Virus record (IMG/VR): IMGVR_UViG_3300011912_000001
Reading direction: 5' to 3' (one strand)
Length of the DNA: 64,000 nt
Source of the DNA: an uncultured virus (IMG/VR IMGVR_UViG_3300011912_000001)
Lineage: Duplodnaviria; Heunggongvirae; Uroviricota; Caudoviricetes
Shown here in pieces: positions 1 to 20,445 of the stretch (within the stretch, counting starts at the first letter, position 1; each line of letters starts with the position of its first letter). The notes below the pieces were generated by a model. That model worked only from the letters and a program-made list of their open reading frames with translations, was not told the origin of the DNA and made no database searches. The position numbers and the translations under genes are program-made.

Positions 1-606
1 TTAAAATATGGACGTCTTGAAGGAATAAAATACATAGAGACGAGAAAAGCTGGAGCTTACTGGCTCTTCCGATGTGATTGCGGAAACGAAAAAATTATCA
101 ATGCTTCAACAGTACGTTTAGGAAAAGTTAAATCATGTGGTTGTTTAGCAAAAGAAAAAGTAAGTCAGACACATAAAAAACATGGTATGGCAAAAACTAA
201 AACCTACGATGCATGGATAGGAATTAAACAAAGATGTTTAAATCCAAAATCAAGTAGTTTTCAAAATTATGGTGGAAGAGGAATTACAATATCTGAACAG
301 TGGTTAGATTTTGAAAAGTTTCTTGAAGACATGGGAGAAGCTCCTGAAGGATTTTCAATTGAAAGAATAGACAATGATAAAGGATATTCTAAAGAAAATT
401 GTAAATGGGCGACAAGAGAAGAGCAAAATCTAAACAAAAGATATGTAAACAAAACAACAGGAATGCGAAACATTTCATATAATAAACGAGATGATAGCTA
501 TTCAGTAGGAATCGCAAGAAATGGTAAAAGATATCGTAAAGATTTTAAAACCATAGAAAGCGCTATTGAATGGAGAAATAACATATTAAAAGACTTGAGT
601 AGTTAA
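1..606 (+). CDS. Intron-encoded HNH-type homing endonuclease with C-terminal AP2-like DNA-binding domain (5'-truncated)
   Basis: Frame 1 is open from base 1 (LKYGRL...WLFRCDCGNEK...KSCGC...). It continues into YGGRGI..W..F..F..DMG..P...SIERIDNDKGY..ENCKWAT..EQ..N, typical of phage HNH endonucleases, and ends in an AP2-like tail (F..IESAIEWR). The Met at 187 is probably internal. Confidence 0.85.
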   Translation, partial: LKYGRLEGIKYIETRKAGAYWLFRCDCGNEKIINASTVRLGKVKSCGCLAKEKVSQTHKKHGMAKTKTYDAWIGIKQRCLNPKSSSFQNYGGRGITISEQWLDFEKFLEDMGEAPEGFSIERIDNDKGYSKENCKWATREEQNLNKRYVNKTTGMRNISYNKRDDSYSVGIARNGKRYRKDFKTIESAIEWRNNILKDLSS

Positions 607-832
607 GTTCAACGACTAGAGAAAGGGAAGGTCTTGAAAAAGGCAAACCGACTACCGTACAGCCAAGTGGTGTTCGCTCTCCGTAATCAGGAGAAATCGC
701 AACATGCGTAGGACTTAAATGGAAAAAAGAAGGATTGAGAAATCAATTAAGATATAGTCTACTCTGCATGGAAAGCATGCAGAAGTTCATTAGAGAACTG
801 CAATGAATTAACGACTCATTGTGAATATAAGG
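1..832 (+). ncRNA. Group I intron (3' part; 5' end upstream of window), probably subgroup IA, with homing endonuclease ORF upstream of P7
   Basis: R-like element GTTCAACGACTA (607-618) and S element AAGATATAGTCT (749-760) give the P7 pairing GACTA/TAGTC. P8-like hairpin GATTGA-GAAA-TCAATT (733-748). P9-type hairpins CTGCATG-GAAAG-CATGCAG (764-782), AGTTC..GAACT (784-799) and CAATGA..TCATTG (801-821). Terminal G at 831 or 832, after which an open frame resumes. More AT-rich than the downstream exon. Confidence 0.85.
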
Positions 833-2885
833 GCCCGGTGCCGAATACTTCACCGACTTTAAACATGGTGACCCGTATTCTCGTGTAAACGCTGGTTTAA
901 TGCGTTTGCCGGGAGATGCATACGAGAAGCTCTATAACGTGCGTAAGGATGCAGACGGCAACTACTCTGCTCTTGACCGGTTACGGATTCTAGCAGATGT
1001 CGCGCCATACTCTGACCAATACCGCATGGCGAAGAAACAACTTTCGTTGCTAAACGGAAACGGTGAATTGACGGAAGAACAGAATGAAGAATACCGAACG
1101 ATTCGAGAACAGGTCAAACAAAAGAAAGAAAAGAAACACTTGTATGACCGGAAGTTCCGGGACGTCGAATTAAAAGAAGAAAAAGTAACGGTCACGAAAG
1201 TCTTGGATGCGAATACGTTCGTCACACGGGAGTACGGCGAAGCGAACCCGATTAAGTTAGCGGGTGTCCAAGTGAAGAACAGTGACCAAGAAACCGTCGA
1301 TTTTGTCCGTCAGTTCATCTATGAAGGGGCAACCTTGAAGATTGGACTTGATGGCGACCCACTCAACAGGGAACGTAAAGACTTGATGACGACGATGCGA
1401 GCGGTTGTTTATACGCAACACAATGAAGAAGGGAATCCGTTCTATTTAACGAACAAAGGGTCGAACCTTAACTTCATGTTAGCGAATCGGGCAGAGTCAA
1501 AAGACAAAGTCACGATTCGAGATGATGGGTCTCAAGTTGCTACCGCCGCTCTCTATTCAAAAGACCAAATCACGGTTGGTAAAATGTATGACACCGTCGT
1601 CCGTGACATTCTGCCAAAGATTCCGATTGCTGGGGTCTTTGCCGATAAGTTCTTGCAAGTTCGTTCTCCTGTAGAATCCTATGAACGAGAACTCTATGGA
1701 AAAGCATGGCGTGACTGGGCAAGTCCATGGTCAGGCTGGATTCAGCCAATGATTGATACGATGGCATCACGGAACCCGTTAATTGCCGCCGCTGAAGGAT
1801 ATGGTATTGGATACATGTTCGGTCGGAACCGGGCACCGGGTATCATCGGAATGGGACTTGGTATGACCGTTGGTTTGATTGCGACTGCTAAGACTGTCGG
1901 TGAGATTGGGAAAGACATCATCGGGGATGATAGCAACTGGATTCCTGCTCGTCGTCGAAAAGAACGAGAAGTCGATGAATACTTCGATAAGCTCAAGTAC
2001 GTCAAGTTCAAAGGGTTGTATGAGAAGACCAAGCAATTGGCGCTTGAGCGAGAAGGCGTCGACTTGGATGCGCTTCTTGAAAATCAAGATGAACAAGGTA
2101 AAGAAAACAAAGGATTAAAGAAATACATCCAAGAACAGAAAAAAAGGTTGAGCATCCAGAAGAAAAGTGGTTATGGTGATATCGAGGCGTTACGTGCCGA
2201 ACTGAAAGACCATAATGATACATTGAAAGAAATCAATGATACACGACCAACGCAAGACTTAGGTCCACTGGGCGCACTGGCTCTTCGTTACAAGCAAGAG
2301 TATGAATCAACGATTTATTCAGCGGATGAAAACATCAACTTCCAGAACATCTATAAAGCGTTACCAGCGAAAGACCGGGAATACTTTACGAAGTTCATGG
2401 AAGCGTCACCGAAAGACCGGGAAAAGATTCTTCGGTTGGTTCCAAAATACCAACGAGCCATCTATCAGAAGTCATGGGGAATGAAAGCAGATAAGAAGGA
2501 AAGTCTTCAAAGCTACTTTGGTTCGCATAACTTACCAGATGAAGATTGGGCAGGATGGGACCCGGGTCAAAGTCTCGATGCCGTCAAAATCAAAGTCATG
2601 AAAAACGAAGGCATTGATTTGACAGAAGCCAACTACTGGGATGACGATGAAAAACGGGCGGAAGAAACACGACTAGGTGCGATTCCCGTTCAAGGTCATG
2701 GTGGCGGACTTGACGTCGGTCGATTAACGAAAGTATTAAAAGGTGCAGGTTTGAAGAATGTTCAAATCACGATGTCGAAGATTGAAGGACCGCCGGGTAT
2801 CAAAACCCAGATGGATATTCAACTCGACCGCACGAAAGAAGTATGGAATGAAATTCAAAGCAATTGGCAAAACTTACTGAGTTGA
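833..2885 (+). CDS. 3' exon of a large intron-split virion protein with an SNase-like OB fold and a hydrophobic Gly-rich segment
   Basis: The frame is open from 831 (in-frame TAA at 828-830 lies inside the intron) and reads PGAEYFTDFKHGDPYSRVNAGL into the ORF-track Met at 900, which has no RBS. VTKVLDANTF..IKLAGV resembles thermonuclease motifs. A TM-like stretch reads AAAEGYGIGYMFG..GIIGMGLGMTVGLIATA. Confidence 0.7.
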
Positions 2886-2889
2886 TACG

Positions 2890-2920
2890 AGAAGGGGAGG
2901 AAGGTTCCTCCCTTTTCTTT
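2890..2920 (+). terminator. Intrinsic terminator-like hairpin
   Basis: GAAGGGGAGGA-AGGT-TCCTCCCTTTTC followed by a T-rich tract, directly after the stop at 2885. Confidence 0.55.
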
Positions 2921-2937
2921 ATATGGAGGGAACAAAG

Positions 2938-5900
2938 ATGGCAGACGATAACATCAAACGAATAGATGCCTTAACAGGAGACTCTCATACGATTTTAGGA
3001 ATCGGGCAAAACAAGAACCGGTTCGAGGAAGACCCAGAATATTTGAAAGCATCCGATGATGTTGCACGGATTCTGAATACAGGAGAAGCCACAACTTCTG
3101 CTAAAAAGATTTGGGCGAACATGGAAGGATATGCCCATGATAAGTTCACATCTGGACAAGGCACGTATGAAGCATTATTAGGTATCGGGAAAGATACGAA
3201 AATCGGAGTCTGGGACATTGAGACGATTGGGTCTCCTGAATTCATGCGGGCGAATGATGTGCGTCGTGGGAAAAATGGCATCGCCGACTTCTTCAGCGTA
3301 ACAGAGATTGCGATGAAGACCGTAAGAGGTCCAGACATGAAAGAAACAGGCGAACAACTGTCCCTGTTGATTTCACCGAACCAAAAATCAATGGAACGGA
3401 TTCAATCTGCCATTAACATGTTGCATGATAAAGGATGGACAGGCTTATCCGATGATATGCGCCGAAGCCTTGCCGACATCAGTCAATACGGGGCAGGAGC
3501 AAAGATTCGAAAAGAAAATGGATTTACATACCTTGAAAGTCACGGAACAAAATTTAAAGATGTTGCATTAGGTACAAAAGAAGGAATTGCTCAAATTGAA
3601 CGAGGCTTTAATAATTTAAAACAAGCGACACCAATCGAAAAGGCATTGTTCGCCGTCAACAAACTCGTTGATAGTAAAACAGTCTTAGCGGGACACAACG
3701 TCCATAACTTTGACCAACGAGCGATGCTCGACGTCTTGAGCGCGACGAAAGAACGTTTCAAACATAGTCCGAATCAGTACAAGGCACTGGACCGTCTTCA
3801 TCAGAACATGCAACGGTCTCAACTGGATACGTTAGAGTTCTTCCGTACGTTCTATGAAACACCACTCCAAGATTTTGGCGGGAACATGACGTTAGGGAAC
3901 TTATACCGGAACTTGACAGGACGTTCATCAGAACAAGCTCACTTTGCCTTAGCCGATATCAATATGAACATTTCGTTGCTAGGGAAAGCACTACGAGACG
4001 GAAAAGAAACGAAGTCCATTCAATCACTAAAACGTTTGTCAGCAAACACGGTAGAAATGGGACAAGTCTATTATTCGAACCGGGGTCTAGGCTCAGATGG
4101 AAAGTATGATGCCATCTACGACAAAGACAAACAAGGCAAGTTCATTCGGGCGCGGGATTTCCGCACAGCGACACTGAACAAGAACAACCATTACGAAGTC
4201 GTTTCTGAAGTCCAGAAAATGATGATTGAAGGCAAGGAACAATACGGGATTACGTTGCTCAACCATGACACAGGATATCACCATCAGATTGTACGGGAGC
4301 GGTTTGATGATATCGCTAACATCTTCCAAAAGAATTTAGTACAAGTGACAGACGACCCGAAGACCCGTCAGAGTCAACTCGAACGAATGAAGACGAACGA
4401 GAAAGACCGGGCACGCCGGGAATATGAGAAACTATTTGATGTAAAAGAAGGAAAAGGGATTGACCGTCTGAAAAAGAACTATGCGTTCCTTGATGCCTAC
4501 GACCGTCATGCGGCGGAGTTAGCGAAGACAGGTATGGATGCTCCTAAATTGCATGAGAGCGCCTTAGGAAGCGCACTAGACGCTGTCAATGATGGCGTGG
4601 ATGCGAAGTATCATGTCGGTACAGGATATGGTGAAAATGTTCTAGGAATGCGTGGACGATTGGATAGCGAAAGAGATATCTGGAATGAAGCCATCAAACG
4701 GATTGAAAAAGAAGATTTCCATTATACAGTGCGTCCAGCAGAAGGAAAGCCGGGTGGTCGTTTCCGGGATAAAGTCAAAGAGACCTATGCGTTATCTAAA
4801 ATCAAAGACCAATTGGAAGCATTGGGAACAGGTGAAAAAGAGAAGTATATGACACCGGGCGTTAAGACCATGGAAATGACACTGAACGGAAAAACCCGTA
4901 ACTTGAATGTCAGTGACCGAACGTCATTCATCTCCTCTGTCAAAAGTATTCTGAGTCGTAATGTCCCAATGAGTCAGCAGAAACAAATGTTCTTGGAAAT
5001 GGTTCAGCAACTGGAACAAACAGGCGTCATCAACGCTGACATGCGAAAAGAATATCTAAAAATCGGGATGGACCGCTTCAATGCCCATAAGCACCTAGAG
5101 GTCAATGATGTCGAGAAGATTGCACGGGAAGTCCAGACAGCGGCGGCACGAGGTGGCGTAGGAACGAAATCTTCGAACGGGACCAATGCAAAAGTTCAAG
5201 CGATGACCGCACCAATTCGAGAATATGTCGAAGGAACTGCTATTTCTAAATCTCCTATTGGAAGCGTCGGGCATGAATTGATGACGACAGGCGTCAACGG
5301 ACAACACGGGAAATTATTCTTTGAACAAGTTGTGCAGTCTTCGATTGAACAAAGCCGGGGATACTCGAAATACAATGTCGTCGACAATGTCTTCTTAAAC
5401 GTACCAAAGACCGTTAAAGAAAAAATTGAACAGCACAACAAGGGTGCTCGTCTTGCTTTAGAAAAGAGTGGATTGATTAACTTGCCTCGTCAACAAATCA
5501 GTTCGATTGTCGGACAAAGCAGAGACATTAAGGCAGGACAATCATTCGAAAGTAAAGTCATCAACTTAGCGAATAGCTATGCTCAAAACTTTGGAGTACG
5601 TCTCGACTACAACAATGATACAGGGAAAATGATGATGATGTTATCGAAGAAAGAACATGCTTCATCGCTGATGAACATGTCACTTCCTGATGCGATTAAG
5701 TCGAACCAAGTGGCTCACTTTGAAATTCCGATGATGAACCCAGACGGAACGATTGAAGTCGGAGGACGTCAATTCGTCGGACGGCTGAGTGCTGGAATCG
5801 GTAGAAACAATACTTTCCAAGTGACGAACGTCGTCGATGAATTCTTCAATGAGATGGGTACCCACTCGAATCGATTGAACAATGCGATGAGACGAAGTGA

Positions 5901-8900
5901 AGAAATTGGTGGAGAGATGAACATCCTAGATGTCCATGGTCGTATCAATAGTAAAATTCAACGGATTCAAGAAGGACTTGTCACGAACCATGCCTTGTTT
6001 ACAGCAAACCCTGAAAAAGAGTTTGCACGGAATTCTCGCTTAGCCAACCATAACCGGGCGATGCAAATTGATGTGACCGGTATGGCGGAGCATTGGTACA
6101 ATGCACGAGGTGGTAAGTTCCAATTAAATGACCAAGACCGTATTAAAGAACGAATGGCGAAAGACAACCTCAGCTTCTTCCAAGCGATGGGTCTAGATGA
6201 ACAGAACTATTTCCATCGAGATATTGAAGGTTTCATGAATGAGAACTTCATGAATGGAAAAGGACAGTTGTCGCACCACGGTCTATCGGATGCACAAGCA
6301 AGAAACGGGGTTCGGTCGCTTGTTGACAACCGACAATACTTTGCATTCGGTGAATTCAACCCGACAGCCCGTGAGAACTTAAACAAAGCTTTGAATTACC
6401 GGGCGCTTGCTGGTGACGCCAACGAAACAGAAATGGTTCGGTCTCGTGTTGCAAGTACGAACAGTGAATCGCAAACATACCGAATGATGAAAGGATTAAC
6501 AACGACCGATGCCGCTAAAGGCATTCAAGGAGAAGAATTTAGTCACTTGAATGTCCGTGTAGGACTCTCGAACGAATTGCAAGTGAACACGCTTGTGAAA
6601 TCTGCTCAACGAGAACTGGATGGCAAGATTGATGAATTACGTCGAAAAACGAACCTATCTCCTGATGAAGCAAAAGAATTAGCAAAACTAGAAGATATGG
6701 CAACCCGTCTAAAACGTGTGAGCTCGATGTCGATGCATGACGGGATGGTACTTGCCTCTAGTTCGATTCAAGAAGCACTAGGAACGATGAAACAGAAATC
6801 GGTGGATGTCGGTATCCAAGGACGCTTGAATCCAAAACTTCAAAAGTTGATGGAAGACAAAGGATTGTTCACAACCGAAGGCGCCTTGAAAGTCGAATCG
6901 GGACAAGGGATTAGTTTTAAAGAATTGCAAGAAGCAGGTATGGTCCAAGAGAAGAACGGAAACTACCGCATTACCGTCGGAAGCATCATGACCGCTGATA
7001 AAGGTGAGTTTAAGGCGATTGAGACCGGGGAGTATAAGAACTGGCATCAGAACTTTGAAATCACAGGATTTGATGCAGACAGTGGACGTGTCCTTATCAA
7101 TGAATACGACAAGGCGAATCAAAGCTTTAAAGCCATTACGCTAGGTGGCGGACGGCATACGATGCAATTCATTGATAGTGACTTGATGGCACATATCACG
7201 AAGTCTGACGATATCAAAGTCTTAATGCCTGAACCAGAAGTCAAAAAGAACATGGGGGGTACATACCTTCGTTCTGTTGTTGACACTTACAGTGATGAAA
7301 TTCGTAAGCAATTGCTAGCAGACCCAACGACTCGTTCAGAGAATATCAACAATTCTCTGCTTCGTCATGGTCATGACGGTGGACGATTGACGGTCGCTGA
7401 CCTTTCCAAAAATGGTCTAGAAGATAAAGTCATGGGCGACTTACTTCGTCCAGCTTTAGATGAAGACTTAAAAATGAAAGGCCAGTATACGATTCAAGAT
7501 GGAGCCGTCATCATGAATGGGAACATCGTCAATAAGAATGGGTACGATGCACAAAACCTAAGCAAAGAACGAGTGCTTGCATTCGATGAACGGATGGCAC
7601 AACAAACGGGCTTCAATCGTCGAAGTGAAGCTGGATTTGAAATCGTTAACGATGGTATCGGGAAACACGATATCTATAGTTATGAGTCAACTGGTCAAAA
7701 GATGCGTATCGGTAAGAAAGAAATGAATGTCATGAAGAGTATCTACGGAGAACATGTCAACGGAGAAGTCCGTGACGTCGTTGCCGGGGGTGCTGACTAT
7801 TCAAAATGGCTCCAGAGTGAACTCCATGCAAGTTCGACTTCACGTGAACCCGCTAAAGAAATCTTCGGAGAAATCATCTCCGGGATGCAAGGCAACAACA
7901 CGCCAAAAGCAGGAGACACCGTCATCGATTTCTCTGGGAAGACAGTCGCTGATGATGTAAACAGTGTCTATGATGTCGGCGGCGTCAATTACGCTGATTC
8001 AAAAATCTTAGATAAGACAGGTAAGATTACAGCCAAGGATATGGCATTCATCGCCGAAGACCATGCTGGTACTATCATGAGTCATAAACTCAGTACCGTT
8101 AAAGTCAATGGGGAAGACAAACAGTTAGGTTCGATTACGTCCGGTAACAGTTACATGAAGTTACCAGAAGAGTTCGGAGAAAATCGTTTTGTCCAGCTTG
8201 TCGATACGTCGAAACTCTCTCGTTTAGATGAATCGGCGCCGATGATGCTTGAGATTCAAAAGAAACAATTAAGTGTGTACCGTAACTTAAAAGAGTTTGA
8301 AAACCTAGGGAAAGGGACACTCCAAGGGGAAGAACTTGATTCGCATAAGCAACAAATTATGCAAAACGTTGAAGCAAGTATTACAGCGCTCCAACAAGAA
8401 ACAACGACGTTTGCGAGTAGTGCGCGTGATGGTGGACTTATCAATAAGCTCATGGTTGGGAAAGCGGACATGTCGGCACAATTCCGTGTTCAAACCATCA
8501 ACCCATTTGAGAACTTCACGCTGGAAAACGGCGAATGGAAAAACACTGGACCATATAAAGAGAGCACGGTTTATATGTCTCGTAACCGTATGAGTGAAAT
8601 GATTGAAGGCAATGAGAAAAACATTGCTCAAGCCATCTATGGAAAAGAAGCACAAGCCATGATTCAAGAGCATGGCGACAACCTGCATAGTGTCATCCTC
8701 GATGATTTAACACACAATGTAGAAGGAAAGAATCTATCACTGTATGGGAACGCCAACCGTTATCCAACCATCAATGACTCAACGATGCAAGCGACACGAT
8801 TTGTTGTCGATGGAAACATGGCAGAAGATGACCGACGGGCACTCATTTCTGTTGGTACATTGAAGGTCATGGCAGGGGATACCGATGGTGACGTTATCAA

Positions 8901-10488
8901 CGGAATGTTGACGCACTATAAAGATAAAGATGCGGCGAAATGGCACGAGGTTGTTAAGAACCGTCATGACTTATCTTTATCAGGGAATGAACAGCAAGCC
9001 GCTACCATCATCAATGAGTACCGGGAAAGTTTAGCAAAAACATACATGACGACGCATAACTACTCTGAGGGTGCAGAAGCCATCGATTTCAAGACGGCTC
9101 AAAAACATGTTGATGATTTAATCGTAGGGAACCAAGAAGGAAAAACGGTCACCGTTCAAACTTTGGTTGCGCAAGGATTCGACGAAGAAAGAGCCAGCGA
9201 CTTCTTCAAATACAAAGTCAATATCGATGAAAACATCCTGACGACGGAAGCCCGTCAAGGTAAAGGCTCTATCGGTATGATTGATAACGTGCGAGAATCC
9301 ATGCGAGAACTCCATTCAATGACACAAGAAGCACTGGTGAACCATGGATTGATTGATGAACAAGCGGCACGCCGAAATGAATTCATTGTCCAAAACTTTG
9401 GTTCTACGATTTCTCAGGAATTGATTTCTTCGAAAAAGGTTAACATCGAAACACTCGTCAACGAAGTCCAAACTGAAAGCCCGTCGATGGCAAAAGCAGA
9501 AGTGTATGCGGAAGCCCGGGAACGGATGCAACGCCGTCATGAAAACGTTGAAAACATCTACCGCCTCTTGCAAAATCCAACGATGGAAAACCAAGAGAAA
9601 TTACACGATGAACTTTCTAACTTAGGAATGTTTGATGGTGGAAATAAGTACTTCAATGGACAAGCCATTCCAAAGGAAGACATCTTAAGAGAAGGTATCG
9701 ACCAATTAGGACAAGCGCACGAATTGACGGCGGCACGTGGAGGAATGCAAAGTCCAGCATTAGCAATTAACCGGTCTTCGGGTATGAAATCAGAAGAGCG
9801 ACTTGCGAGTGCATTAGTCGGAGAAACCTTCATGCCGACAAGTAGTCACCATGAGATTCTGACAGAGGGCATGAAAGACGGCGAACAGTACTTCGAATCT
9901 CGTAAAAAAGATTTCCAAGCGCATATTGCGAACACGTTCAAAGAACGTGGGCAACATAGCAATTTGCTCGATTCGATTCAAGGTGACTTAGGTGGAGGTC
10001 CTCGTTATAACATCGTCGATGAAATCTCGAAGAATGGTGGTTCGTTCTTATCAGAGACAGCGGGAGATGCGATGGGCAAAGTCAAGACTGGAACGAGTGA
10101 AGTCTTCAATGGTATTAAGAAGATGGCATCTTCTCCGATGGCTGTCAGTTTCGCCGCTATCTGGGGTGCTTCAGCGATGATGCGGTCGGCGCCAACGCCA
10201 GAAGGTGCGGAAGCGCAACAAGAAGCTCGCCAAGTGGACGTGGCACCGGAACAAATGTTGACTTCACCTACAGCAAGGGTTACACCTAAAGGAGAAAGCA
10301 CAATCTTAAAAATCAGTGGGCGTGGCATGGGTGGTATGGACCATAATGCACTTGCTGGGATTGTAAACTCTGAGGTTCAACAAATGTCTGGAACGAAGAT
10401 GGACATGAACGTCAATATCAATGACAATACCCAAACAATTAGTAACCGATGGATTCAACAGAAATTGAATGAGTCCATGAACCAATAA
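2938..10488 (+). CDS. Giant putative virion two-barrel RNA polymerase with N-terminal DEDDh 3'-5' exonuclease domain
   Basis: Exonuclease motifs: WDIETIG (3211-3231), LAGHNVHNFD (3685-3714), AHFALAD (3937-3957). Polymerase motifs: MHDGMV (~6733), FKAITLGGGRH (~7126-7158), NRYPT (8755-8769), AGDTDGD (8872-8892). GGAGG at 2925 favours ATG 2938 over 2923. Confidence 0.7.
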   Translation: MADDNIKRIDALTGDSHTILGIGQNKNRFEEDPEYLKASDDVARILNTGEATTSAKKIWANMEGYAHDKFTSGQGTYEALLGIGKDTKIGVWDIETIGSPEFMRANDVRRGKNGIADFFSVTEIAMKTVRGPDMKETGEQLSLLISPNQKSMERIQSAINMLHDKGWTGLSDDMRRSLADISQYGAGAKIRKENGFTYLESHGTKFKDVALGTKEGIAQIERGFNNLKQATPIEKALFAVNKLVDSKTVLAGHNVHNFDQRAMLDVLSATKERFKHSPNQYKALDRLHQNMQRSQLDTLEFFRTFYETPLQDFGGNMTLGNLYRNLTGRSSEQAHFALADINMNISLLGKALRDGKETKSIQSLKRLSANTVEMGQVYYSNRGLGSDGKYDAIYDKDKQGKFIRARDFRTATLNKNNHYEVVSEVQKMMIEGKEQYGITLLNHDTGYHHQIVRERFDDIANIFQKNLVQVTDDPKTRQSQLERMKTNEKDRARREYEKLFDVKEGKGIDRLKKNYAFLDAYDRHAAELAKTGMDAPKLHESALGSALDAVNDGVDAKYHVGTGYGENVLGMRGRLDSERDIWNEAIKRIEKEDFHYTVRPAEGKPGGRFRDKVKETYALSKIKDQLEALGTGEKEKYMTPGVKTMEMTLNGKTRNLNVSDRTSFISSVKSILSRNVPMSQQKQMFLEMVQQLEQTGVINADMRKEYLKIGMDRFNAHKHLEVNDVEKIAREVQTAAARGGVGTKSSNGTNAKVQAMTAPIREYVEGTAISKSPIGSVGHELMTTGVNGQHGKLFFEQVVQSSIEQSRGYSKYNVVDNVFLNVPKTVKEKIEQHNKGARLALEKSGLINLPRQQISSIVGQSRDIKAGQSFESKVINLANSYAQNFGVRLDYNNDTGKMMMMLSKKEHASSLMNMSLPDAIKSNQVAHFEIPMMNPDGTIEVGGRQFVGRLSAGIGRNNTFQVTNVVDEFFNEMGTHSNRLNNAMRRSEEIGGEMNILDVHGRINSKIQRIQEGLVTNHALFTANPEKEFARNSRLANHNRAMQIDVTGMAEHWYNARGGKFQLNDQDRIKERMAKDNLSFFQAMGLDEQNYFHRDIEGFMNENFMNGKGQLSHHGLSDAQARNGVRSLVDNRQYFAFGEFNPTARENLNKALNYRALAGDANETEMVRSRVASTNSESQTYRMMKGLTTTDAAKGIQGEEFSHLNVRVGLSNELQVNTLVKSAQRELDGKIDELRRKTNLSPDEAKELAKLEDMATRLKRVSSMSMHDGMVLASSSIQEALGTMKQKSVDVGIQGRLNPKLQKLMEDKGLFTTEGALKVESGQGISFKELQEAGMVQEKNGNYRITVGSIMTADKGEFKAIETGEYKNWHQNFEITGFDADSGRVLINEYDKANQSFKAITLGGGRHTMQFIDSDLMAHITKSDDIKVLMPEPEVKKNMGGTYLRSVVDTYSDEIRKQLLADPTTRSENINNSLLRHGHDGGRLTVADLSKNGLEDKVMGDLLRPALDEDLKMKGQYTIQDGAVIMNGNIVNKNGYDAQNLSKERVLAFDERMAQQTGFNRRSEAGFEIVNDGIGKHDIYSYESTGQKMRIGKKEMNVMKSIYGEHVNGEVRDVVAGGADYSKWLQSELHASSTSREPAKEIFGEIISGMQGNNTPKAGDTVIDFSGKTVADDVNSVYDVGGVNYADSKILDKTGKITAKDMAFIAEDHAGTIMSHKLSTVKVNGEDKQLGSITSGNSYMKLPEEFGENRFVQLVDTSKLSRLDESAPMMLEIQKKQLSVYRNLKEFENLGKGTLQGEELDSHKQQIMQNVEASITALQQETTTFASSARDGGLINKLMVGKADMSAQFRVQTINPFENFTLENGEWKNTGPYKESTVYMSRNRMSEMIEGNEKNIAQAIYGKEAQAMIQEHGDNLHSVILDDLTHNVEGKNLSLYGNANRYPTINDSTMQATRFVVDGNMAEDDRRALISVGTLKVMAGDTDGDVINGMLTHYKDKDAAKWHEVVKNRHDLSLSGNEQQAATIINEYRESLAKTYMTTHNYSEGAEAIDFKTAQKHVDDLIVGNQEGKTVTVQTLVAQGFDEERASDFFKYKVNIDENILTTEARQGKGSIGMIDNVRESMRELHSMTQEALVNHGLIDEQAARRNEFIVQNFGSTISQELISSKKVNIETLVNEVQTESPSMAKAEVYAEARERMQRRHENVENIYRLLQNPTMENQEKLHDELSNLGMFDGGNKYFNGQAIPKEDILREGIDQLGQAHELTAARGGMQSPALAINRSSGMKSEERLASALVGETFMPTSSHHEILTEGMKDGEQYFESRKKDFQAHIANTFKERGQHSNLLDSIQGDLGGGPRYNIVDEISKNGGSFLSETAGDAMGKVKTGTSEVFNGIKKMASSPMAVSFAAIWGASAMMRSAPTPEGAEAQQEARQVDVAPEQMLTSPTARVTPKGESTILKISGRGMGGMDHNALAGIVNSEVQQMSGTKMDMNVNINDNTQTISNRWIQQKLNESMNQ

Positions 10489-10508
10489 CAGGCAGGAGGA
10501 AGCACATC

Positions 10509-13500
10509 ATGAACGCAACTGAAGCGTTGATTGTATCAATTCAAAAGCCATCAGAAGACAGTGCATGGCGATTGGTGATGCTTCTAAATGGCGAACTACT
10601 GACCGCAACAAGCATCGGGACTAACGGGCAAACACCCGCTGGTCCCCGTTTGCGTCAGGTACTGAGTCATCTAGAACCACATATTAAAGGATATCCCTTC
10701 GAATACGGTATGAGTATGATACCAGACGGCACCAAACGACTAGCGATGGTGCGGTATATCGGAGAACAAATGGGACTCGTTGAAGTCACAGCTCGTACCT
10801 TGAATACGATTCTTCGGTCGAAGGTCACGCCACGAGAATTTAGTGTCGACGAAATCATTCCATTCTCTGAAGGATTCACAGGAGAAGGATTTGTTTCGAC
10901 ACCACAAGAACCTGTCATGGGACTGATGTCTCTTGTCAATGATGGTGGCGGTGGAGGCGGCGCAAGTGCTCCTGAAGAAGAAACGATTACAACAGGTCCT
11001 GAGCAATTCATTCTCTATGGTGAAGTAAAAAAAGTCGTTGACGGCGATACAGCTGACATCGAAATCCTAGCACTCCATGAACGGATGCGTGGGAAGATGG
11101 TCGGTAAATACTTCATGGACGTGGGAGAAGAAATCACAGTTCGTTTCCTAGGGATTGATAGCCCTGAAACGAAGAAGGATTATGATGGCGGATACGGAGC
11201 TAAAGAGAATACAGAGCTTGCGGCAATGTGGGATGTCACCGTTGATGTCGTCTTCGATGTAGCAGAAGAAGCGAAACATACGACGATGAACATGATTACG
11301 CCGGGGACTTCAAAAGCTTTTGTTATCATTGCGCTCCAATACAATAAGAAAACAAACAAAGCAATGGCGGATTCTGGTAACGGTCAGCGCCCACTGGGAA
11401 CGCTTTATCAAGTCAGTACGAAAATCAAAGACGTTGATAAATTCCTTGCTGAGATGACGAAGCCAAACAGTAAGGGGAAAAACATCAACAAAACATTACT
11501 TGGAAAACGATATTCAAAAGACGCTCGTCTACCGTTGTTCCAACACGATTTGTTCAATGCTCCAAACCAGACGGATAATGGTATTAACACAGGCGGTTGG
11601 GGAGCTGAAGTTGGATATACGGAACCGGTCACTAAAGAATACAAAGAACCAAGTGATGTCGACAATACCTCACCGAACAAAGAAAAAGATTCTTTGGATG
11701 AAAACATGTTTGCGATGCGATATGAAGAACAAGTGTCGAATGCGTTGGATTTTGTCGTACCCAATGATGACCGGGTATTAGAGGGTAAAATTTATAGTAA
11801 GTCGATTAAGTTGTCTGATGATGAAAATGCGCTCGAAGAACCGTTTGATTATATTCATAAAGTACGGATTGGTGACGTTCTACTAGATGTTCCCCCGCTT
11901 TCCATTTCGATGGCACGGATGGGCAACATTGAAAAGATTAAAACCCTTCGGACGCAAAGCTCGATGATGAAAGGTGTCGGAAGCGCGAATACGACGTTGA
12001 CGTTAGACCTCTATTTCCATGGGATGGATGACATCAACGGTAGACAAGAAGATGCGTATGAGATTGATGGCGTCAAGTACTACTACCATATGGATGGATT
12101 GCGGACATTGATTGCGCAATTCAAGAAAGCGCCGTTCCTTCCGATTGATAACCATTACATCAACACGACATTGAATATTCATAATGTAGCGTTACATAAC
12201 TTAAAAATTGAAACTGTTGAAGATTTCCCTGAATCGTTGAAAGCGACATTGACGTTGTCGAAGTTTGAAGTCGAAGCATTCATGTTACCAGAACCAAGCT
12301 TATCTTCGGTCATGAATTATCCGTTGTTCCGTTGGTACTACCAACAAGCAATGCAACCGATTCGAGAAGATGAATTGCCGGGACGGGTCTACCTCGAACC
12401 GATTAATCGTGTATCAAACGATTTCCAGTTCTTCGTAGCCGACGAAAACAAATTATCGTTCCGTCAAGATGCTATCAGTAAAGTTAATAAGATGACTCCG
12501 CCAGACGAGTACCGGGAACAAGCGAAAAAGAAAACGAGTGAAGCCGGAAAACGAATGGAAGACGGGAAGCGAAGCCAGAAGATTTTAGGGCAATACAAAC
12601 GCTATACAGAAGTCATTAAAAACAGAGGGACATTCTTTGGTATCAGTCAAGTGATTAACCCGAACGCAAGTGGTTGGTCGAAAGAAGCCTTTGACACGAT
12701 TTATGAAGGTTCAAAACCGAACTGGGAAAAAGGTGTTCAGAACTCATTCTTCGTTTCGAAAGAATACTTCGAATGGAACAAATTCATGGAGCACTTCGAG
12801 AAGATGCCTAGTTTCATGGAAGCATGGGAAAAAGAAGGCAAGGAAGCGGAAGGCGTCTTTATGATGGCATTCGGAGACAGTGAGAACTATAAGAAGTTTG
12901 ATTCACGCTACGTCCTGTATAAAGACGGAGCTCCATTCAAACGAGCAGACGGGACCGGTTACCTCGTCATTCCTTCGACATTAAAGAACCGTAAAATCTT
13001 AGCGAACGTCACAGAAGAAGAACAAAACGTCTTAGATGAAATCAATGACTACGAGGAACGTTACCAAGCACTCGTTGAAATCGTCAACTCGACAGAAGAA
13101 TCGGTGAAGATGGTTCCGTTCGACATCCCTGATTTATTACCAACAGGCATGTCCGTCATCTATGAGAATCAATTCTCTTCGATGCAAGTGGAACTGTTGG
13201 ATTCTCCGACCTTGCAATACCTAGGAGGACAAGACCCGTACATTCAATTGATGTTCGATGGAACGGAAGAAACGGTGCGTGCTGTCAACAACATGATGTT
13301 ACTGGTCGAACGATATAACCGTCAGTACCGCCAAGGGATTGTTTCTGGGTTTATGGACGTTGAGAACTCCATCTTACGTTTGATGGGTGTTAAATCAGTC
13401 ATGCCAGAGAACATTAGCATTGATACGGTACCGGGCTCACCGGGACGCTTCCAAATCATGATGACACTCTGTGGGTTCAACCGGACGCAACGCCGTCTAG

Positions 13501-16500
13501 AACGCTTACAAGGCGTCTCAGCGGTCATGGGCGATACCAAACTCAATGACCGATACGTCAAAAACTATTCGAAAGAAAAAGACTTTGCCGTCCTTGAATA
13601 CCGGATGCGGTCGATGGAAGTCTACCCAGACTTAGAATTGCCAACATTCGATGAGCTGAATGCGGTGTTAAAAGATGACATTCTAAAAACAGGTATCAAA
13701 GAATACAAGAACAATCAGAAGCAATACTTCGTCGACCCAGACTTCTATATCAATTCCAGTAATACGTTACAGCAATTCATCAAGGAAGAGATTGAAGACA
13801 AGACTGGTTTCAGCGTCATCACCTACGACAACACAGGAGCCAAAGAAGGAACAACGACAAAGAGTAAAGGATTCTTGGATTCAGAGTTGTCAAGCGACTT
13901 CAATAGTGCGTTCTCTATCACGGATAAAACCGTTGAGATGGTTCCGTCAGATTTAACATGGAAAGACAAAGACGAGAAAAAAGGCAACAAAAAAGAAAAG
14001 GGCGAAAACTCGTTGGCGAAAATGGCGAACGTCGAATTGACAGGCGACGTCGCTGACTATGTAAAAGAAGATGGAAAATCGAAAGCCCCTTATCATACGC
14101 CACCAAGCTATGAGAAGTGGAAAAAGTATTCTGGAAACAGCAAGAAAAGTAAGAAAGAATACGAGGATTGGGCAAAGAGTAATAAGAAAAACCCTAGCGA
14201 AGCAGACATCTGGTTCTATGTCATGAAAAAGATTGTCAATGTCTTTGGTAAAGGCATGTTAAAGATGACGAAGCTTGACGAAGAAGTCATCGTCCAACAA
14301 GTTTCAGGAACACGAAATAGTGATTGGTTAGAAGGTAGTATCTTAAACAGCCCTGACGTTCAAATGAAATACTTCTATGCTTCTTCAGGAAAGATTTCGA
14401 AAAAAGGGAACTTCCATTACGTTAACTTCGGAGACGATGAATCGTTCAATGGTTCAGTCAATAAACTCTATGAAGATATCATGGATTGGGATAAATTCGA
14501 TTTGAAATGGAAGAAGATGAAAAAGGTCGACTCCCCGAATGGAGAAAAGAATGCGGACCTTGATAACGTCACGAATCTTTTAAATAGTACCCGCTGGACA
14601 AAAGAAGATGGTTTGCAACCGATTGAAGGAAAAGATGAATGGGGCGTCGTCAAGATTCCAATTCACCGTTTATCCGGTATTATCAAAGCCATCATGCTGT
14701 TGCATTCACGTTGGGAAGTGTTCAACCCAGCAGGTAAGCCTGTCCTCTCACAAGGATGGCGAGCAGGACTGATGGGGTATCCACTGGATATCGTCGAAGA
14801 CAAAGACCAAGCAGAGCGCTTGTTCTATGACTGGAAATACAACGTTGACCAATCATTGGCACTCTTACACAAGCACTACATCAAAGCTTCAAAACAAAAT
14901 GACCTTCGTTTCAAGTCACGGAACTTGGAATGGATGGTGTGGCAGTACGGAGTCGCTGGGCAAGACAAAGAAGTTCTTCCAAAGAAAGAAAAGTCTTCAG
15001 AAGAAAAATCGGTGACGCCACGCCGTCTTGCACCGGGGAATGGATACGTCAACAATGTCATGAGTCAATGGCGGAAAGCGTATGCGACGACGACTCCTGA
15101 AGGAGCACCGGGGATTTATGCCGGAGGGATTTCCACTTTGATTCCAGAAGTCTTTGCAAAGTATGCAGGGATGGAAGGTAGCTTGTTGAAAGCTTTTGAA
15201 GGCGATAAGAAGTCAATGATTGACTTGATGATTAACGACTTGTATTACCCACTCAACATCTATAAGATGCAAAAGAGCAATGACTCGTTGGTGGATAAAT
15301 ACGATGATGCGAAAATGAAGAAAAAGAAACAAGAAGCCCGCAATCAATTGCAAAGTATGCCCGCTCAAAAAGTACAAGTCGCTTTCTTCAATCACTTAGG
15401 AGAACTCAAAAGTAAGATGGAAGAAGTCGACAAGGAAAGTCTTTGGGAATGGGGTGCTTGGGCGGCAGGAGGCGTTCTCGCTGTTATCGGTGGAGCGTTA
15501 CTAGGAGGACCGCTGGGTGCGGCCATTGCCTTAGGAGTCTTTGCCATCGGTGCCGGAACCGCCGGAGTCTTGGACATGGCAACGAACAGTTTTAGTTCTC
15601 GTACCAATGAAGTTGTCGATGCGTACACGGATATGACCGAACAAGGAGATGCGAATGCCAACAACCGACTCGTCAACCGTCTGAGTCCAGAAGAAACGCA
15701 CCTTCAAATGTATACGGACATGATTGAATACGACAAGCAAGGACGTTTGCTCCGGGCGTTCCCGACCTTCCAGATGTTCATCGTCGACGAAGGGAAATGG
15801 ATGGCGAACTATAAGATGTGGGATAACCTCTATGGATTCAATGCTATTCAATCGATTGATATCTATCGCTCTCGTAAGATTGCGGCGGATACGGCGACTA
15901 TCACGATGACGAACATGTACTCGAACTTGAACGGTCGGCGGACCGATATCATGAATGATAAAGCCAAAATGCCATCGTTCTTCTCGAACATCACATGGAG
16001 TCAATTCTTATTAGGACGTCCGTCAGAAGATTATGTCCAAGCTCGTAAAGAACTATATAAGTCGATGTACTTACAAACGGGAGCACGGATTCACTTACGA
16101 ATGGGATATGGTTCGAATGTATTGAATCTCCCAACGGTCTTTAATGGAACAATTACAGAGATGGATACATCAGAACTCGTGACACTCGTTTGTCAGGGAG
16201 ATGGATTAGAACTTTCGAACATGATTTCAGGTGACCCGGATGACAACAATAAGAGCTTCTTACGTGTCATGGAACCATCGGAAACGATTGGTCGTCTACT
16301 AACTTCTAAAGGGGGTTGGTTGCGTGACTTGATTTCAGCACAAACCGACGGGGAATTCTATAAGGATAACCCATTAGGGATTGCACACTTCGGCGCACCG
16401 ATTGAATCGCCTTCTGGAAACTTTGTTCCGTTCAACCGGGACTACGGGGAAGCGGCGCAAAACATCTATTCTTCAAACGGCATCGGAAACTTTGACCAAT

Positions 16501-18128
16501 GGAAGAATGAGAAGGGTGAGAACGTCAACATGTGGGACGTGCTGACGGACTTTGAAACGTTCTCTAGTACGAACATCTTCAAGTTCGCTCAACCGGGAGA
16601 CGAAGACAATATCATAGTCAAGTATTACAACAATACGGTCTGGGATATTCTCCAAACGTTTGCCTATTGTTCAAGCGATTATATCGCCGCCGTCATGCCA
16701 TTTGAAATGCGCTCTACGGTCTTCTTCGGAAAACCACACTGGGGTGTTGCTTACCGGTATGATTCGACCTATGAGTTTGACTCAGCGACAGGCGAATGGA
16801 CACGGAAGTACGATAGTGAACACCGTAAGCCGTATATGCAGATGCACTTGTACAACAGTCACCACAACATCATTTCAAATAACATCAAAGCTTCTGAAGA
16901 AGGCGTGTACACGAACGTTATCGTCAGTTACGATGGACACGTTACACCAGTCGTTCAAGCAGATAATGATATTCGAATTGATAAACAAAAGACGATAGTC
17001 GTTGAAGCTGATATCGTCGGACGCTTCCCGGGTGACCCAACCGGTACGCTTGAGAAGTGGACGTCAGAGGGTCAAGCCTTAAAATATGGGCATTCAGCTG
17101 TACGTGATTATATGAAAGACATGTATAAAGGACACTTGCTCGTCATCGGTGACCCAACCGTGAAACCGCATGATGCGATGTATATGAATGATTCCATGGT
17201 CGACATGAGTGGGATTACGTTAGTCAAATCCGTCACCCATCATTTCTCTGTTGATACAGGCTTCGTCACATCGATTGAACCAGATGCATATGTCACAAAC
17301 TGGGACATGGAAATGCTTCACCATGGGAAGATGGGGTCGGCGTTCGGAGCAAAAGTTGCGATTGCGACATCTGCCATGGCATCTACATGGGTTACGAAAA
17401 AAGTCGTCCAACGTTCAGGCGTGTATAAATGGTTGATGGACGAGAATGGAAAAGGCAAGCCGTTCGTCAAAGAACAGATTAGTCGATTCCATACTCAGAA
17501 CGCACTGGATAAGATGCTTGAAGGGAAAGACATGCCAGATGATTTAAAAGACTTGGCGAAGAAGTTGCGGAATGCGAAGACGAAAGCAGAAGTTGATACG
17601 CATTATGATGACATCAAAAAAGCACTCGACAAGCGTCTTGAAACATTGAAGGCGACAGGCGATGCCGACGTTGAAGTCTCGAAGCTTCGTTCTGAAGTGA
17701 AGTCATTGAAGAAGATGGTACGGATTGCCCGAACAGGTAAAGGAGCGGCGAAAGCGGCTTCGGTTGCCAAAGCAGGACTCAGTGTTGTTAAAGCCGGAAG
17801 TATCGTCAACCCGATTTCCTTGCTTGCGACAGCGGCTTTCACGGTCGCAACCGAAACACTGTTTGAGATGTGGCGTCGAAAGAAACAACAAACCCAATGT
17901 GTCACCATCTTCCCTCTGCAATATCGAGGAGGAGAATTGGTTGCCGGTATCAATGGTCACCAAGGGGCCGTGTACGGGGATGTTCCATCGAAAGCAGATA
18001 AGTTCTGGAATGCGAGTTTCGGAGACGACGAGAAAGAAGATACATGGTATGAGTACATCAGTGCAACCATGAACTTCCTTGCCGGAGATTCAAAAGAAGT
18101 TGAACAAAAGAACGCATACGAAGAGTAA
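10509..18128 (+). CDS. Giant multidomain tail/baseplate hub-like protein with thermonuclease (SNase) domain, degenerate lysozyme-like segment and TM segments
   Basis: SNase motifs VKKVVDGDTADI and VRFLGIDSPET. SLT-like IIKAIMLLHS..AGLM..DWKYNV. Hydrophobic WGAWAAGGVLAVIGGALLGGPLGAAIALGVFAIGAG. The C-terminal part resembles hub proteins (RIHLRMGYG..VFNGTITE; IGDPTVKPHD..VKSVTHHFS..GFVTSI). RBS AGGAGG upstream. Confidence 0.65.
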   Translation: MNATEALIVSIQKPSEDSAWRLVMLLNGELLTATSIGTNGQTPAGPRLRQVLSHLEPHIKGYPFEYGMSMIPDGTKRLAMVRYIGEQMGLVEVTARTLNTILRSKVTPREFSVDEIIPFSEGFTGEGFVSTPQEPVMGLMSLVNDGGGGGGASAPEEETITTGPEQFILYGEVKKVVDGDTADIEILALHERMRGKMVGKYFMDVGEEITVRFLGIDSPETKKDYDGGYGAKENTELAAMWDVTVDVVFDVAEEAKHTTMNMITPGTSKAFVIIALQYNKKTNKAMADSGNGQRPLGTLYQVSTKIKDVDKFLAEMTKPNSKGKNINKTLLGKRYSKDARLPLFQHDLFNAPNQTDNGINTGGWGAEVGYTEPVTKEYKEPSDVDNTSPNKEKDSLDENMFAMRYEEQVSNALDFVVPNDDRVLEGKIYSKSIKLSDDENALEEPFDYIHKVRIGDVLLDVPPLSISMARMGNIEKIKTLRTQSSMMKGVGSANTTLTLDLYFHGMDDINGRQEDAYEIDGVKYYYHMDGLRTLIAQFKKAPFLPIDNHYINTTLNIHNVALHNLKIETVEDFPESLKATLTLSKFEVEAFMLPEPSLSSVMNYPLFRWYYQQAMQPIREDELPGRVYLEPINRVSNDFQFFVADENKLSFRQDAISKVNKMTPPDEYREQAKKKTSEAGKRMEDGKRSQKILGQYKRYTEVIKNRGTFFGISQVINPNASGWSKEAFDTIYEGSKPNWEKGVQNSFFVSKEYFEWNKFMEHFEKMPSFMEAWEKEGKEAEGVFMMAFGDSENYKKFDSRYVLYKDGAPFKRADGTGYLVIPSTLKNRKILANVTEEEQNVLDEINDYEERYQALVEIVNSTEESVKMVPFDIPDLLPTGMSVIYENQFSSMQVELLDSPTLQYLGGQDPYIQLMFDGTEETVRAVNNMMLLVERYNRQYRQGIVSGFMDVENSILRLMGVKSVMPENISIDTVPGSPGRFQIMMTLCGFNRTQRRLERLQGVSAVMGDTKLNDRYVKNYSKEKDFAVLEYRMRSMEVYPDLELPTFDELNAVLKDDILKTGIKEYKNNQKQYFVDPDFYINSSNTLQQFIKEEIEDKTGFSVITYDNTGAKEGTTTKSKGFLDSELSSDFNSAFSITDKTVEMVPSDLTWKDKDEKKGNKKEKGENSLAKMANVELTGDVADYVKEDGKSKAPYHTPPSYEKWKKYSGNSKKSKKEYEDWAKSNKKNPSEADIWFYVMKKIVNVFGKGMLKMTKLDEEVIVQQVSGTRNSDWLEGSILNSPDVQMKYFYASSGKISKKGNFHYVNFGDDESFNGSVNKLYEDIMDWDKFDLKWKKMKKVDSPNGEKNADLDNVTNLLNSTRWTKEDGLQPIEGKDEWGVVKIPIHRLSGIIKAIMLLHSRWEVFNPAGKPVLSQGWRAGLMGYPLDIVEDKDQAERLFYDWKYNVDQSLALLHKHYIKASKQNDLRFKSRNLEWMVWQYGVAGQDKEVLPKKEKSSEEKSVTPRRLAPGNGYVNNVMSQWRKAYATTTPEGAPGIYAGGISTLIPEVFAKYAGMEGSLLKAFEGDKKSMIDLMINDLYYPLNIYKMQKSNDSLVDKYDDAKMKKKKQEARNQLQSMPAQKVQVAFFNHLGELKSKMEEVDKESLWEWGAWAAGGVLAVIGGALLGGPLGAAIALGVFAIGAGTAGVLDMATNSFSSRTNEVVDAYTDMTEQGDANANNRLVNRLSPEETHLQMYTDMIEYDKQGRLLRAFPTFQMFIVDEGKWMANYKMWDNLYGFNAIQSIDIYRSRKIAADTATITMTNMYSNLNGRRTDIMNDKAKMPSFFSNITWSQFLLGRPSEDYVQARKELYKSMYLQTGARIHLRMGYGSNVLNLPTVFNGTITEMDTSELVTLVCQGDGLELSNMISGDPDDNNKSFLRVMEPSETIGRLLTSKGGWLRDLISAQTDGEFYKDNPLGIAHFGAPIESPSGNFVPFNRDYGEAAQNIYSSNGIGNFDQWKNEKGENVNMWDVLTDFETFSSTNIFKFAQPGDEDNIIVKYYNNTVWDILQTFAYCSSDYIAAVMPFEMRSTVFFGKPHWGVAYRYDSTYEFDSATGEWTRKYDSEHRKPYMQMHLYNSHHNIISNNIKASEEGVYTNVIVSYDGHVTPVVQADNDIRIDKQKTIVVEADIVGRFPGDPTGTLEKWTSEGQALKYGHSAVRDYMKDMYKGHLLVIGDPTVKPHDAMYMNDSMVDMSGITLVKSVTHHFSVDTGFVTSIEPDAYVTNWDMEMLHHGKMGSAFGAKVAIATSAMASTWVTKKVVQRSGVYKWLMDENGKGKPFVKEQISRFHTQNALDKMLEGKDMPDDLKDLAKKLRNAKTKAEVDTHYDDIKKALDKRLETLKATGDADVEVSKLRSEVKSLKKMVRIARTGKGAAKAASVAKAGLSVVKAGSIVNPISLLATAAFTVATETLFEMWRRKKQQTQCVTIFPLQYRGGELVAGINGHQGAVYGDVPSKADKFWNASFGDDEKEDTWYEYISATMNFLAGDSKEVEQKNAYEE

Positions 18129-18134
18129 TCGACA

Positions 18135-18166
18135 GGCAAGAGGAATTTCCTCTTGTCTTTCTTTTT
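18135..18166 (+). terminator. Intrinsic terminator
   Basis: GGCAAGAGG-AATTT-CCTCTTGTC followed by TTTCTTTTT after the stop at 18128. Confidence 0.65.
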
Positions 18167-18179
18167 ATAGAAAGGTTAA
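18153..18179 (+). promoter_or_regulatory. Putative phage promoter (TTGTC..GGTTAA)
   Basis: One of six intergenic copies of a TTGnn-N15/16-GGTT(A/T) pattern. Confidence 0.35.
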
Positions 18180-18202
18180 GACATTAAGTAGAGGTGAAAC
18201 CT

Positions 18203-19372: not shown

Positions 19373-19384
19373 AGGAGGTTCATC

Positions 19385-20014: not shown

Positions 20015-20019
20015 GCATC

Positions 20020-20055
20020 TATACTTTTAGGAAGAAAAAGGTTACATTCGTAACC
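20020..20055 (+). promoter_or_regulatory. Putative phage promoter (TATAC..GGTTAC) overlapping a GGTTAC-ATTC-GTAACC inverted repeat
   Basis: Same spacing as the other GGTTA motifs; perfect 6-bp inverted repeat at 20040-20055. Confidence 0.35.
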
Positions 20056-20072
20056 GATAAAGAGGTGAGAAC

Positions 20073-20432: not shown

Positions 20433-20445
20433 GAGGTGAGGACAT

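Follow-up and report, generated by a model that had tools for sequence, protein, structure and literature searches.

A giant gene in the tail module of a jumbo myophage (gene B) carries the full catalytic signatures of a DEDDh 3'-5' exonuclease and of a cell-type, two-barrel RNA polymerase (RNAP). The explanation that best accounts for the whole of the data, to which we assign a probability of roughly 0.6, is that the gene B product is a tail-delivered virion RNAP-exonuclease and probable tail ruler, that the downstream gene (gene C) encodes the baseplate hub, and that the upstream gene (gene A) encodes a structural partner. The stretch of DNA analyzed (the window; 64,000 nucleotides) spans positions 62001-126000 of a virus record of 237 kb. 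A preceding reading of the letters alone (the sequence-only reading) had proposed that the three proteins could form an ejected trans-envelope conduit that also delivers a polymerase and two or three nucleases.

The virus belongs to the 0305phi8-36/WH1/pBtic235 lineage of myophages. In tblastn searches, the closest named relatives are the Bacillus phages KLEB27-3, WH1, Edson and 0305phi8-36 and the Moorella phage MTATph1, and 22 plasmid records, the pBtic235 group included, are also among its relatives. Three open reading frames (ORFs) are arranged in tandem (900-2885, 2923-10488 and 10509-18128; Table 1), and these are followed by genes for an SLT+M23 lysin, an M15 peptidase, a sheath initiator and baseplate J. 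These coordinates and downstream genes confirm that the three giant genes lie just before the lysin and baseplate genes, as had been proposed. The region preceding the window carries a sheath gene, three tube-like genes and two chaperone-position genes, then gene A, where the names sheath, tube and chaperone are assigned from synteny with relatives that are annotated. Cultured phages and plasmid prophages share the gene order sheath, three tubes, two chaperones, A, B, C, baseplate, and in annotated relatives A, B and C are followed by lysins or a spike and then by the baseplate.

Table 1. Features of the three giant genes and their surroundings (window positions unless given as genome positions).
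Feature	Position	Strand	Remarks
3' part of 1,050-nt group I-type intron (genome 61783-62832), splitting gene A	1..832	+	
HNH endonuclease ORF inside gene A intron	1-606		
Gene A exon 1	genome 57650-61782		
Gene A exon 2 (predicted spliced product 2,061 aa)	833..2885	+	orthologue of 0305phi8-36 gp145, WH1 gp096
SNase-fold domain of gene A, without D21-equivalent	1167..1559	+	VIA on L005 model
Gene B, 2,521 aa as listed	2923..10488	+	orthologue of 0305phi8-36 gp146, WH1 gp095, KLEB27-3 gp034
DEDDh 3'-5' exonuclease of B (D98, E100, D264, H340, D345)	3214..3957	+	motif conservation
Single-chain two-barrel RNAP core of B (predicted)	5920..9519	+	motifs, predicted fold
Basic pair K1403/R1411 of B	7129	+	
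R1946-x-P1948 of B	8758	+	
DxDGD of B	8878-8892	+	then bridge-helix-like and trigger-loop-like motifs
Gly/Ala-rich weakly hydrophobic helix and conserved C-terminal domain of B	10126..10488	+	candidate baseplate anchor
Gene C, 2,539 aa, predicted enlarged baseplate hub	10509..18128	+	orthologue of 0305phi8-36 gp147
SNase domain of C, complete catalytic set (D178, D180, R212, D217, E220, R294)	11016..11528	+	
Two related conserved domains of C, residues ~430-660 and 850-1083	11796..13757	+	
SLT-like segment of C, His at catalytic Glu position	14661..14963	+	
Strong hydrophobic segment of C, subclade-restricted	15474..15608	+	score 2.0
gp27/gpD-like hub region of C, then two conserved hydrophobic/amphipathic helices, basic RRKK motif	15687..17858	+	
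SLT+M23 lysin, M15 peptidase, two small ORFs, sheath initiator, baseplate J	18194..22191	+	context

None of the 28 window proteins scanned yielded a match to a tape-measure family, except via the M23 domain of the lysin, and the available text of PMC8026635 reports that no tape-measure gene was detected in the pBtic235 group. A check for a separate tape-measure gene, as suggested previously, therefore detected none, and the synteny of the trio is kept throughout the lineage. In GenBank, notes on 0305phi8-36 gp145 and gp146 (the orthologues of A and B) describe these as virion proteins identified by mass spectrometry, which favors the earlier proposal of virion presence. These findings support the assignment of A, B and C as tail-module virion genes, with virion presence extended from the orthologues. 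Terminator-like hairpins with T runs are observed at window positions 2890-2922 (between A and B) and 18140-18175 (after C), and given these hairpins gene B may be regulated separately.

Translation of gene B probably starts at position 2938, after a GGAGGG site, to give a product of ~2,516 amino acids. The exonuclease residues (ExoI D-x-E, ExoII D and ExoIII H-x4-D) and the RNAP residues R1946, P1948, D1986, D1988, G1989 and D1990 are invariant in 13/13 aligned gene B sequences, which were selected as RNAP-bearing. The range of the gene B family is judged here from 12 proteins plus named records, and most named orthologues are ~22-26% identical to the window protein. Invariance of catalytic residues despite this low identity counts in favor of gene B encoding an RNAP-exonuclease. 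K1403/R1411, which matches the basic pair of the second barrel, is invariant in 8/8 closer homologues; in three of the 13 sequences, all distant, K1403 is unaligned and only the second position aligns, as Lys. For the exonuclease, a match to Pfam RNase_T (E 0.012) falls below the family cut-off. The hydrophobic stretch and an NVNINDN-type tail are present at the C-terminus, as the sequence-only reading had listed for the exonuclease-RNAP gene. The C-terminal tails of A and B were also compared as candidate paralogues, and this relationship was rejected (HH-align probability 0.4%).

An RNAP fold is predicted for gene B from a low-confidence structure model of residues 1000-2199 (pLDDT 56, pTM 0.31, 12 sequences). 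RNA polymerase chains or complexes make up 45 of the 48 Foldseek matches listed for this model, two of them at E <0.001, and the best match is to AR9 nvRNAP (E 2.5e-4); the TM-scores are ~0.1, and the DxDGD loop is among the low-confidence parts of the model. With VIA, residues 1848-2021 match the Pol V largest subunit (Z 8.2, rmsd 3.5 Å, 127 residues), where the matches are mostly coiled coils and RNAP chains account for five of the 50 listed. Hence the catalytic barrel region matches RNAPs on this low-confidence model, and the second barrel exhibits no separate match. A PDB sequence-profile search with gene B produced chance matches only and no RNAP, scans of Pfam and PHROGs likewise revealed no RNAP (with no match to Pfam RdRP), and the ESM Atlas gave only viral clusters at 0.80 or less. 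Pfam and PHROGs likewise gave no informative match for exon 2 of A or for the whole of B.

A DxDGD-type motif is present in 9 of the 14 genomes examined that have a B-slot gene, the other five being 0305phi8-36, MTATph1, pBWB401, pH3-552 and a Cetobacterium plasmid. By segment-wise HMMs, the exonuclease is kept in 0305phi8-36 gp146 (2,537 aa; E 7e-4) and in the MTATph1 gene (E 2e-8), as is the C-terminal tail of gene B (E 2e-4 and 2e-13, respectively). The RNAP segments of B yield no match in either gene with the same HMMs. Because these two genes keep the exonuclease and the C-terminal tail without the RNAP, sequence comparison indicates that the polymerase is an optional, exchangeable cargo on a conserved gene B chassis. 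The exonuclease is independent of the polymerase, since it is kept where the polymerase is absent. Gene A also has a variable payload.

Some B-slot loci exhibit other peculiarities. The MTATph1 gene (L004:11799-19155) is in two pieces, of 1,309 and 313 amino acids, around a transposase pair, and is without RNAP. pBWB401 (L020) and pH3-552 (L024) carry internal deletions in A and B, with the DxDGD region of B missing, and look like decaying prophages. On the Cetobacterium plasmid, the B-slot ORF (L025:25362-34948) ends in an RNAP-barrel-like stretch with a GIY-YIG gene directly after it, perhaps reflecting an intron inside the catalytic motif, and a type I restriction cassette is located between A and B.

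The genome also encodes a second, stand-alone RNAP of the RdRP/YonO type (1,037 aa; genome 25330-28443; L011:5334-8444, minus strand; RdRP-family E 0.0015). Both RNAP types also occur in pBTHD789-2 and in a B. licheniformis plasmid. No profile similarity was detected between gene B and the stand-alone RNAP. The stand-alone enzyme gave no match in a search of phage records or in 0305phi8-36, WH1 and KLEB27-3, and this search is insensitive because it missed the enzyme of 0305phi8-36, which is published as having one; for this phage, the available text of PMC7824862 mentions only a YonO-like enzyme. A hypothetical 682-aa gene is located downstream of the stand-alone RNAP gene, and short inverted repeats of the TATATAG type are arrayed at genome 29166-29455.

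The closest known parallel is Thermus phage P23-45, in which gp96 is a tape-measure-fused virion two-barrel RNAP whose entry through the tail has been proposed, gp64 is a non-virion RNAP, and some relatives are without the fused RNAP (PMC10770324). Gene B resembles this system in the presence of a predicted single-chain two-barrel RNAP within a giant gene at the tape-measure position, in the second stand-alone RNAP, and in the existence of relatives that lack the fused RNAP. It differs in that the tail is contractile and the hosts are of Gram-positive type, and, unlike in gp96, the RNAP occupies the C-terminal half and follows a DEDDh exonuclease, in a protein of half the length. P23-45 chains are absent among the fold matches listed for gene B, the activity of which is predicted. 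In the available part of PMC10770324, neither WH1 nor KLEB27-3 appears in the table of phages with two RNAPs, where the eight rows labeled 'Bacillus' all concern phiKZ-like phages.

Like single-subunit RNAPs of the YonO/QDE-1/phi14:2 gp66 type, gene B appears to place a beta-type barrel before a beta'-type barrel in one chain. Its bridge-helix-like and trigger-loop-like words are common to the stand-alone RdRP-family RNAP of this genome and are assigned to the YonO/QDE-1-type family. Unlike members of that family, gene B exhibits neither profile similarity to the stand-alone RNAP nor a Pfam RdRP match. The trio is also similar to the polyvalent proteins of phages, which are giant multi-enzyme virion proteins with variable payload domains and predicted co-injection with DNA (PMC5512222), but it differs from these in occupying core tail-morphogenesis slots; the terms tape-measure, DEDD, SNase and double-psi were not found in the available text of that paper.

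Orthologous trios in the same order are formed by 0305phi8-36 gp145/gp146/gp147 and by BtI1/BwK1 of the pBtic235 group, with the difference that gp146 itself is without RNAP. The available texts of PMC2147016 and PMC8026635 note no RNAP or exonuclease in the protein of the gp146 slot, and a full-text literature search returned no report of an RNAP in the gene B family.

Gene A is interrupted by an insert that ends at window position 832, with exon 2 beginning at 833. The spliced frame agrees with the intron-less orthologues across the junction, and one candidate junction, in which exon 1 ends in T and the intron in G, restores their spacing. KLEB27-3 carries an intron at the identical site that is 72% identical. 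P/Q/R/S-like consensus words each occur once and in order, and no group I or other intron model in Rfam was matched. On these sequence features the insert is classified as a group I-type intron, with splicing predicted. The gene A family comprises 302 proteins, with a median of 2,059 amino acids among the 120 matches listed, and six of these 120 carry intein-type domains near residues 1030, 1381-1394 and 1640. Residues ~1030, 1381-1394 and 1640 of the gene A family mark a hotspot for group I introns and inteins in a presumed structural protein.

The C-terminal 1,200 amino acids of gene A were modeled for an 83% identical relative (L005) from a 36-sequence alignment, and the result (pLDDT 74, pTM 0.70) points to a compact body, not an extended chain. 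This portion is 45-64% conserved over most bins. The N-terminal 850 amino acids are variable, and their matches to helical bundles are compositional only. The L005 model includes an SNase fold (VIA Z 9.2, rmsd 2.7 Å, 105 residues), for which 4 of 96 homologues have Asp at the D21 position; this domain is likely to be inactive in the window protein because the D21-equivalent is missing. Therefore, the earlier description of an intron-split gene with an SNase is borne out for the intron and for the fold, and fails for the catalytic Asp.

Other than this domain, there is no clear solved-structure match for the gene A model, a result that does not by itself argue for a new fold. A search of BFVD with the core retrieved the orthologues from WH1 and 0305phi8-36 (recognized by identity and length) and a 'large polyvalent protein associated domain-containing protein' (E 4.7e-37), a UniProt label that is automatic. 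Neither the ESM Atlas nor a GTDB genome scan gave a match for gene A. Gene A is best explained as encoding a structural partner that is conserved and whose SNase fold is dead. Separately, 0305phi8-36 gp145 (L001:16787-22579) carries an insertion at residues ~1050-1290 that is absent from the gene A of the window and that, by eye, resembles a PD-(D/E)xK nuclease; three more gene A homologues are gapped at this location.

Gene C is orthologous to 0305phi8-36 gp147 (E 1e-54), which was assigned by HMM to the T4 gp27/P2 gpD hub family (PMC2147016). By orthology and this published assignment, gene C is predicted to be the baseplate hub at the tube tip. Its SNase domain is detected with a PDB profile (E 7.5e-4), and equivalents of D19, D21, R35, D40, E43 and R87 are all present in the window protein. 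Five of the catalytic positions are kept in 44-45 of 48 homologues and the D40 position in 22 of 48, and this SNase is likely to be catalytically intact, as judged from its residues. The two related domains of gene C cross-match via MTATph1, with weak DUF6046 matches in homologues, and by similarity they are probably of the tube-initiator type. The catalytic position of the SLT-like segment is Glu in 16 of 48 homologues, a BLASTP comparison of this segment with the neighboring lysin gave no match, and the domain is likely inactive here. Of the features claimed for gene C, the SNase and the orthology to a hub are borne out, the SLT-like domain lacks its catalytic Glu, and the strong candidate transmembrane (TM) segment is specific to a subclade. 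A hub SNase domain had already been described for the BtI1 homologue (PMC2147016).

The best 19-residue Kyte-Doolittle scores are 1.55 for A, 1.15 for B and 2.0 for C. By comparison, 6 of 33 other large proteins of the genome reach 1.4 and 1 of 33 reaches 1.6. The gene B segment scores 1.05-1.64 in 11 homologues. Among 48 homologues, the strong segment of gene C (2.0) reaches 1.6 in only five, and the C-terminal segments of gene C show better conservation, with scores of 1.3 or more in 44 and of 1.6 or more in 24. By these values, the hydrophobicity of A and B is at the background level, and membrane contact is reasonably supported for C alone. The proposal that all three genes are TM-bearing is weak when the scores of A and B are set against the six large proteins that score at least 1.4.

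Published accounts disagree on which gene is the tail ruler: gp146, in the gene B slot, was chosen as the tape measure from its length (PMC2147016), whereas gene A, not B, was proposed from its helicity (PMC8026635). The 0305phi8-36 tail is 486 nm long (PMC1817643), and that of pBtic235 is given as ~200 x 12 nm, an approximate EM figure (PMC9700832) with a width that is narrow for a sheathed tail. Whole B corresponds to 0.19 and 0.08 nm per residue in 0305phi8-36 and pBtic235, respectively, and whole A to 0.25 and 0.09, and thus neither protein scales with tail length. Subtraction of the enzyme domains from B (~270 aa of exonuclease and ~1,200 aa of RNAP, with rough boundaries set by us) gives 0.21 nm per residue for both phages, an agreement that rests on two data points, one of them the approximate EM figure, and serves as a lead only. 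The variable N-terminus of A follows the opposite trend, measuring ~490 aa in the phage with the 486-nm tail and ~917 aa in the one with the 200-nm tail. With C-terminal 1,200 amino acids that are conserved and predicted to be compact, and with this opposite trend, gene A does not resemble an extended, fast-evolving helical ruler whose length follows the tail.

Gene B is located directly before the hub gene and one gene after the chaperones, a slot that A shares. Aromatic residues in B revealed no clear tape-measure-like repeat, and a full-text literature search found no tail lengths for WH1, Edson, KLEB27-3 or MTATph1. A folded RNAP in the middle of the chain would not fit in the tube lumen. 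In our preferred explanation, gene B probably also acts as the tail ruler, with its conserved C-terminal domain as the anchor. A more speculative extension, which we consider doubtful, is that a widespread Bacillota lineage, made up of jumbo phages with contractile tails and of plasmid prophages, uses a modular tape measure in which the compactly stored RNAP and exonuclease are not counted, such that gain or loss of the polymerase would retune the tail (~200 versus 486 nm) at near-constant gene size. The enzyme would then be fired through the Gram-positive wall and may start transcription at strand-specific hairpins with a 3-4-base loop in the non-structural region of this genome.

Under our preferred explanation, the gene B product would be packaged in the tail module and would enter the cell on tail contraction. 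Its RNAP would transcribe the first phage genes, including the stand-alone polymerase gene, after which the stand-alone RNAP would take over, and its exonuclease may trim DNA or RNA ends. The gene C protein would remain as the hub with an intact SNase, and that of gene A as a structural partner. The presence of B in the virion (from its orthologues), its ejection, pre-early transcription and the ruler role are all inferred.

A less probable alternative is that B, an RNAP-exonuclease that is injected, is carried as internal cargo in the head or in a baseplate chamber, and that A is the ruler or a co-ruler; both would be classed as polyvalent proteins, not as tape measures. In crAss-like and N4-like phages, RNAP is carried as internal cargo, which provides a parallel. 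The position of A directly after the chaperone genes, its variable N-terminal 850 amino acids (with helical-bundle matches that are compositional only), the naming of A as the tape measure in PMC8026635, the match of its core to a predicted polyvalent-protein structure, and the failure of whole B to scale with tail length are all consistent with this arrangement. However, the C-terminal 1,200 amino acids of A are predicted to be compact and are well conserved, unlike fast-evolving rulers, the variable N-terminus has fewer residues in the phage with the longer tail, and the polyvalent label is an automatic one.

The strong form of the original proposal, one trans-envelope conduit assembled from ejected A, B and C and delivering three nucleases, now appears improbable. 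In its favor, there is a Gly/Ala-rich hydrophobic stretch near each C-terminus, conserved in the case of C (at least 1.3 in 44 of 48 homologues), and the trio is found in synteny across the whole lineage. Against this, C is a hub orthologue, the core of A is predicted to be compact (pTM 0.70), its SNase is without the catalytic Asp, and the membrane segments are marginal, with A and B at the background level. The part of the proposal concerning delivery is plausible for the RNAP and exonuclease, for which P23-45 gp96 offers a precedent, and the likely nucleases number two, not three.

We give the least credence to the idea that the two-barrel domain is a relic, a structural filler, or the maker of a non-mRNA product such as primers, with the exonuclease as proofreader. 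A fused DEDDh domain is typical of proofreading enzymes, and 0305phi8-36 is a viable lytic phage without the two-barrel domain. Yet the catalytic residues are invariant while the surrounding identity is ~22-26%, and the exonuclease persists without the polymerase. A tail-delivered RNAP-exonuclease, with C as the hub and A as a structural partner, is thus the reading that we retain.

If this reading is correct, tail-delivered two-barrel RNAPs extend from one group of Thermus siphophages, hot-spring phages that are so far the one group with such delivery on record, to contractile-tailed phages of Gram-positive hosts. These would include the cultured phages WH1, Edson and KLEB27-3 and the inducible pBtic235, in which the annotation of the gene is hypothetical or structural. 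The known RNAPs would also gain a very divergent family, one that is missed by Pfam and PHROGs. The natural pair of pBtic235 and 0305phi8-36, with and without the RNAP, makes it possible to test the passage or storage of a 130-kDa enzyme in the tail, and which giant gene sets tail length.

An intergenic, strand-specific hairpin motif was observed outside the window, at genome positions 6.6 kb, 14.9-22.0 kb and 153-235 kb. It is composed of a GC stem of 4-5 bp and a loop of 3-4 nt around TAC, with conserved flanks, and resides ~20-45 nt upstream of ribosome-binding sites. There are 14 exact matches and one near match, versus 0.004 exact matches expected. The stem covaries, and a relaxed pattern yields 11 matches on one strand, versus 0-1 in 20 shuffles. 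No copies are present in the structural module or upstream of the stand-alone RNAP gene, and WH1, KLEB27-3 and pBTHD789-2 contain no exact copy of the pattern. The motif is a candidate phage-RNAP promoter or terminator, with no tie to gene B established. Among the tail-fibre genes, at window positions 30441-31940, a polysaccharide deacetylase is fused to a collagen-repeat protein.
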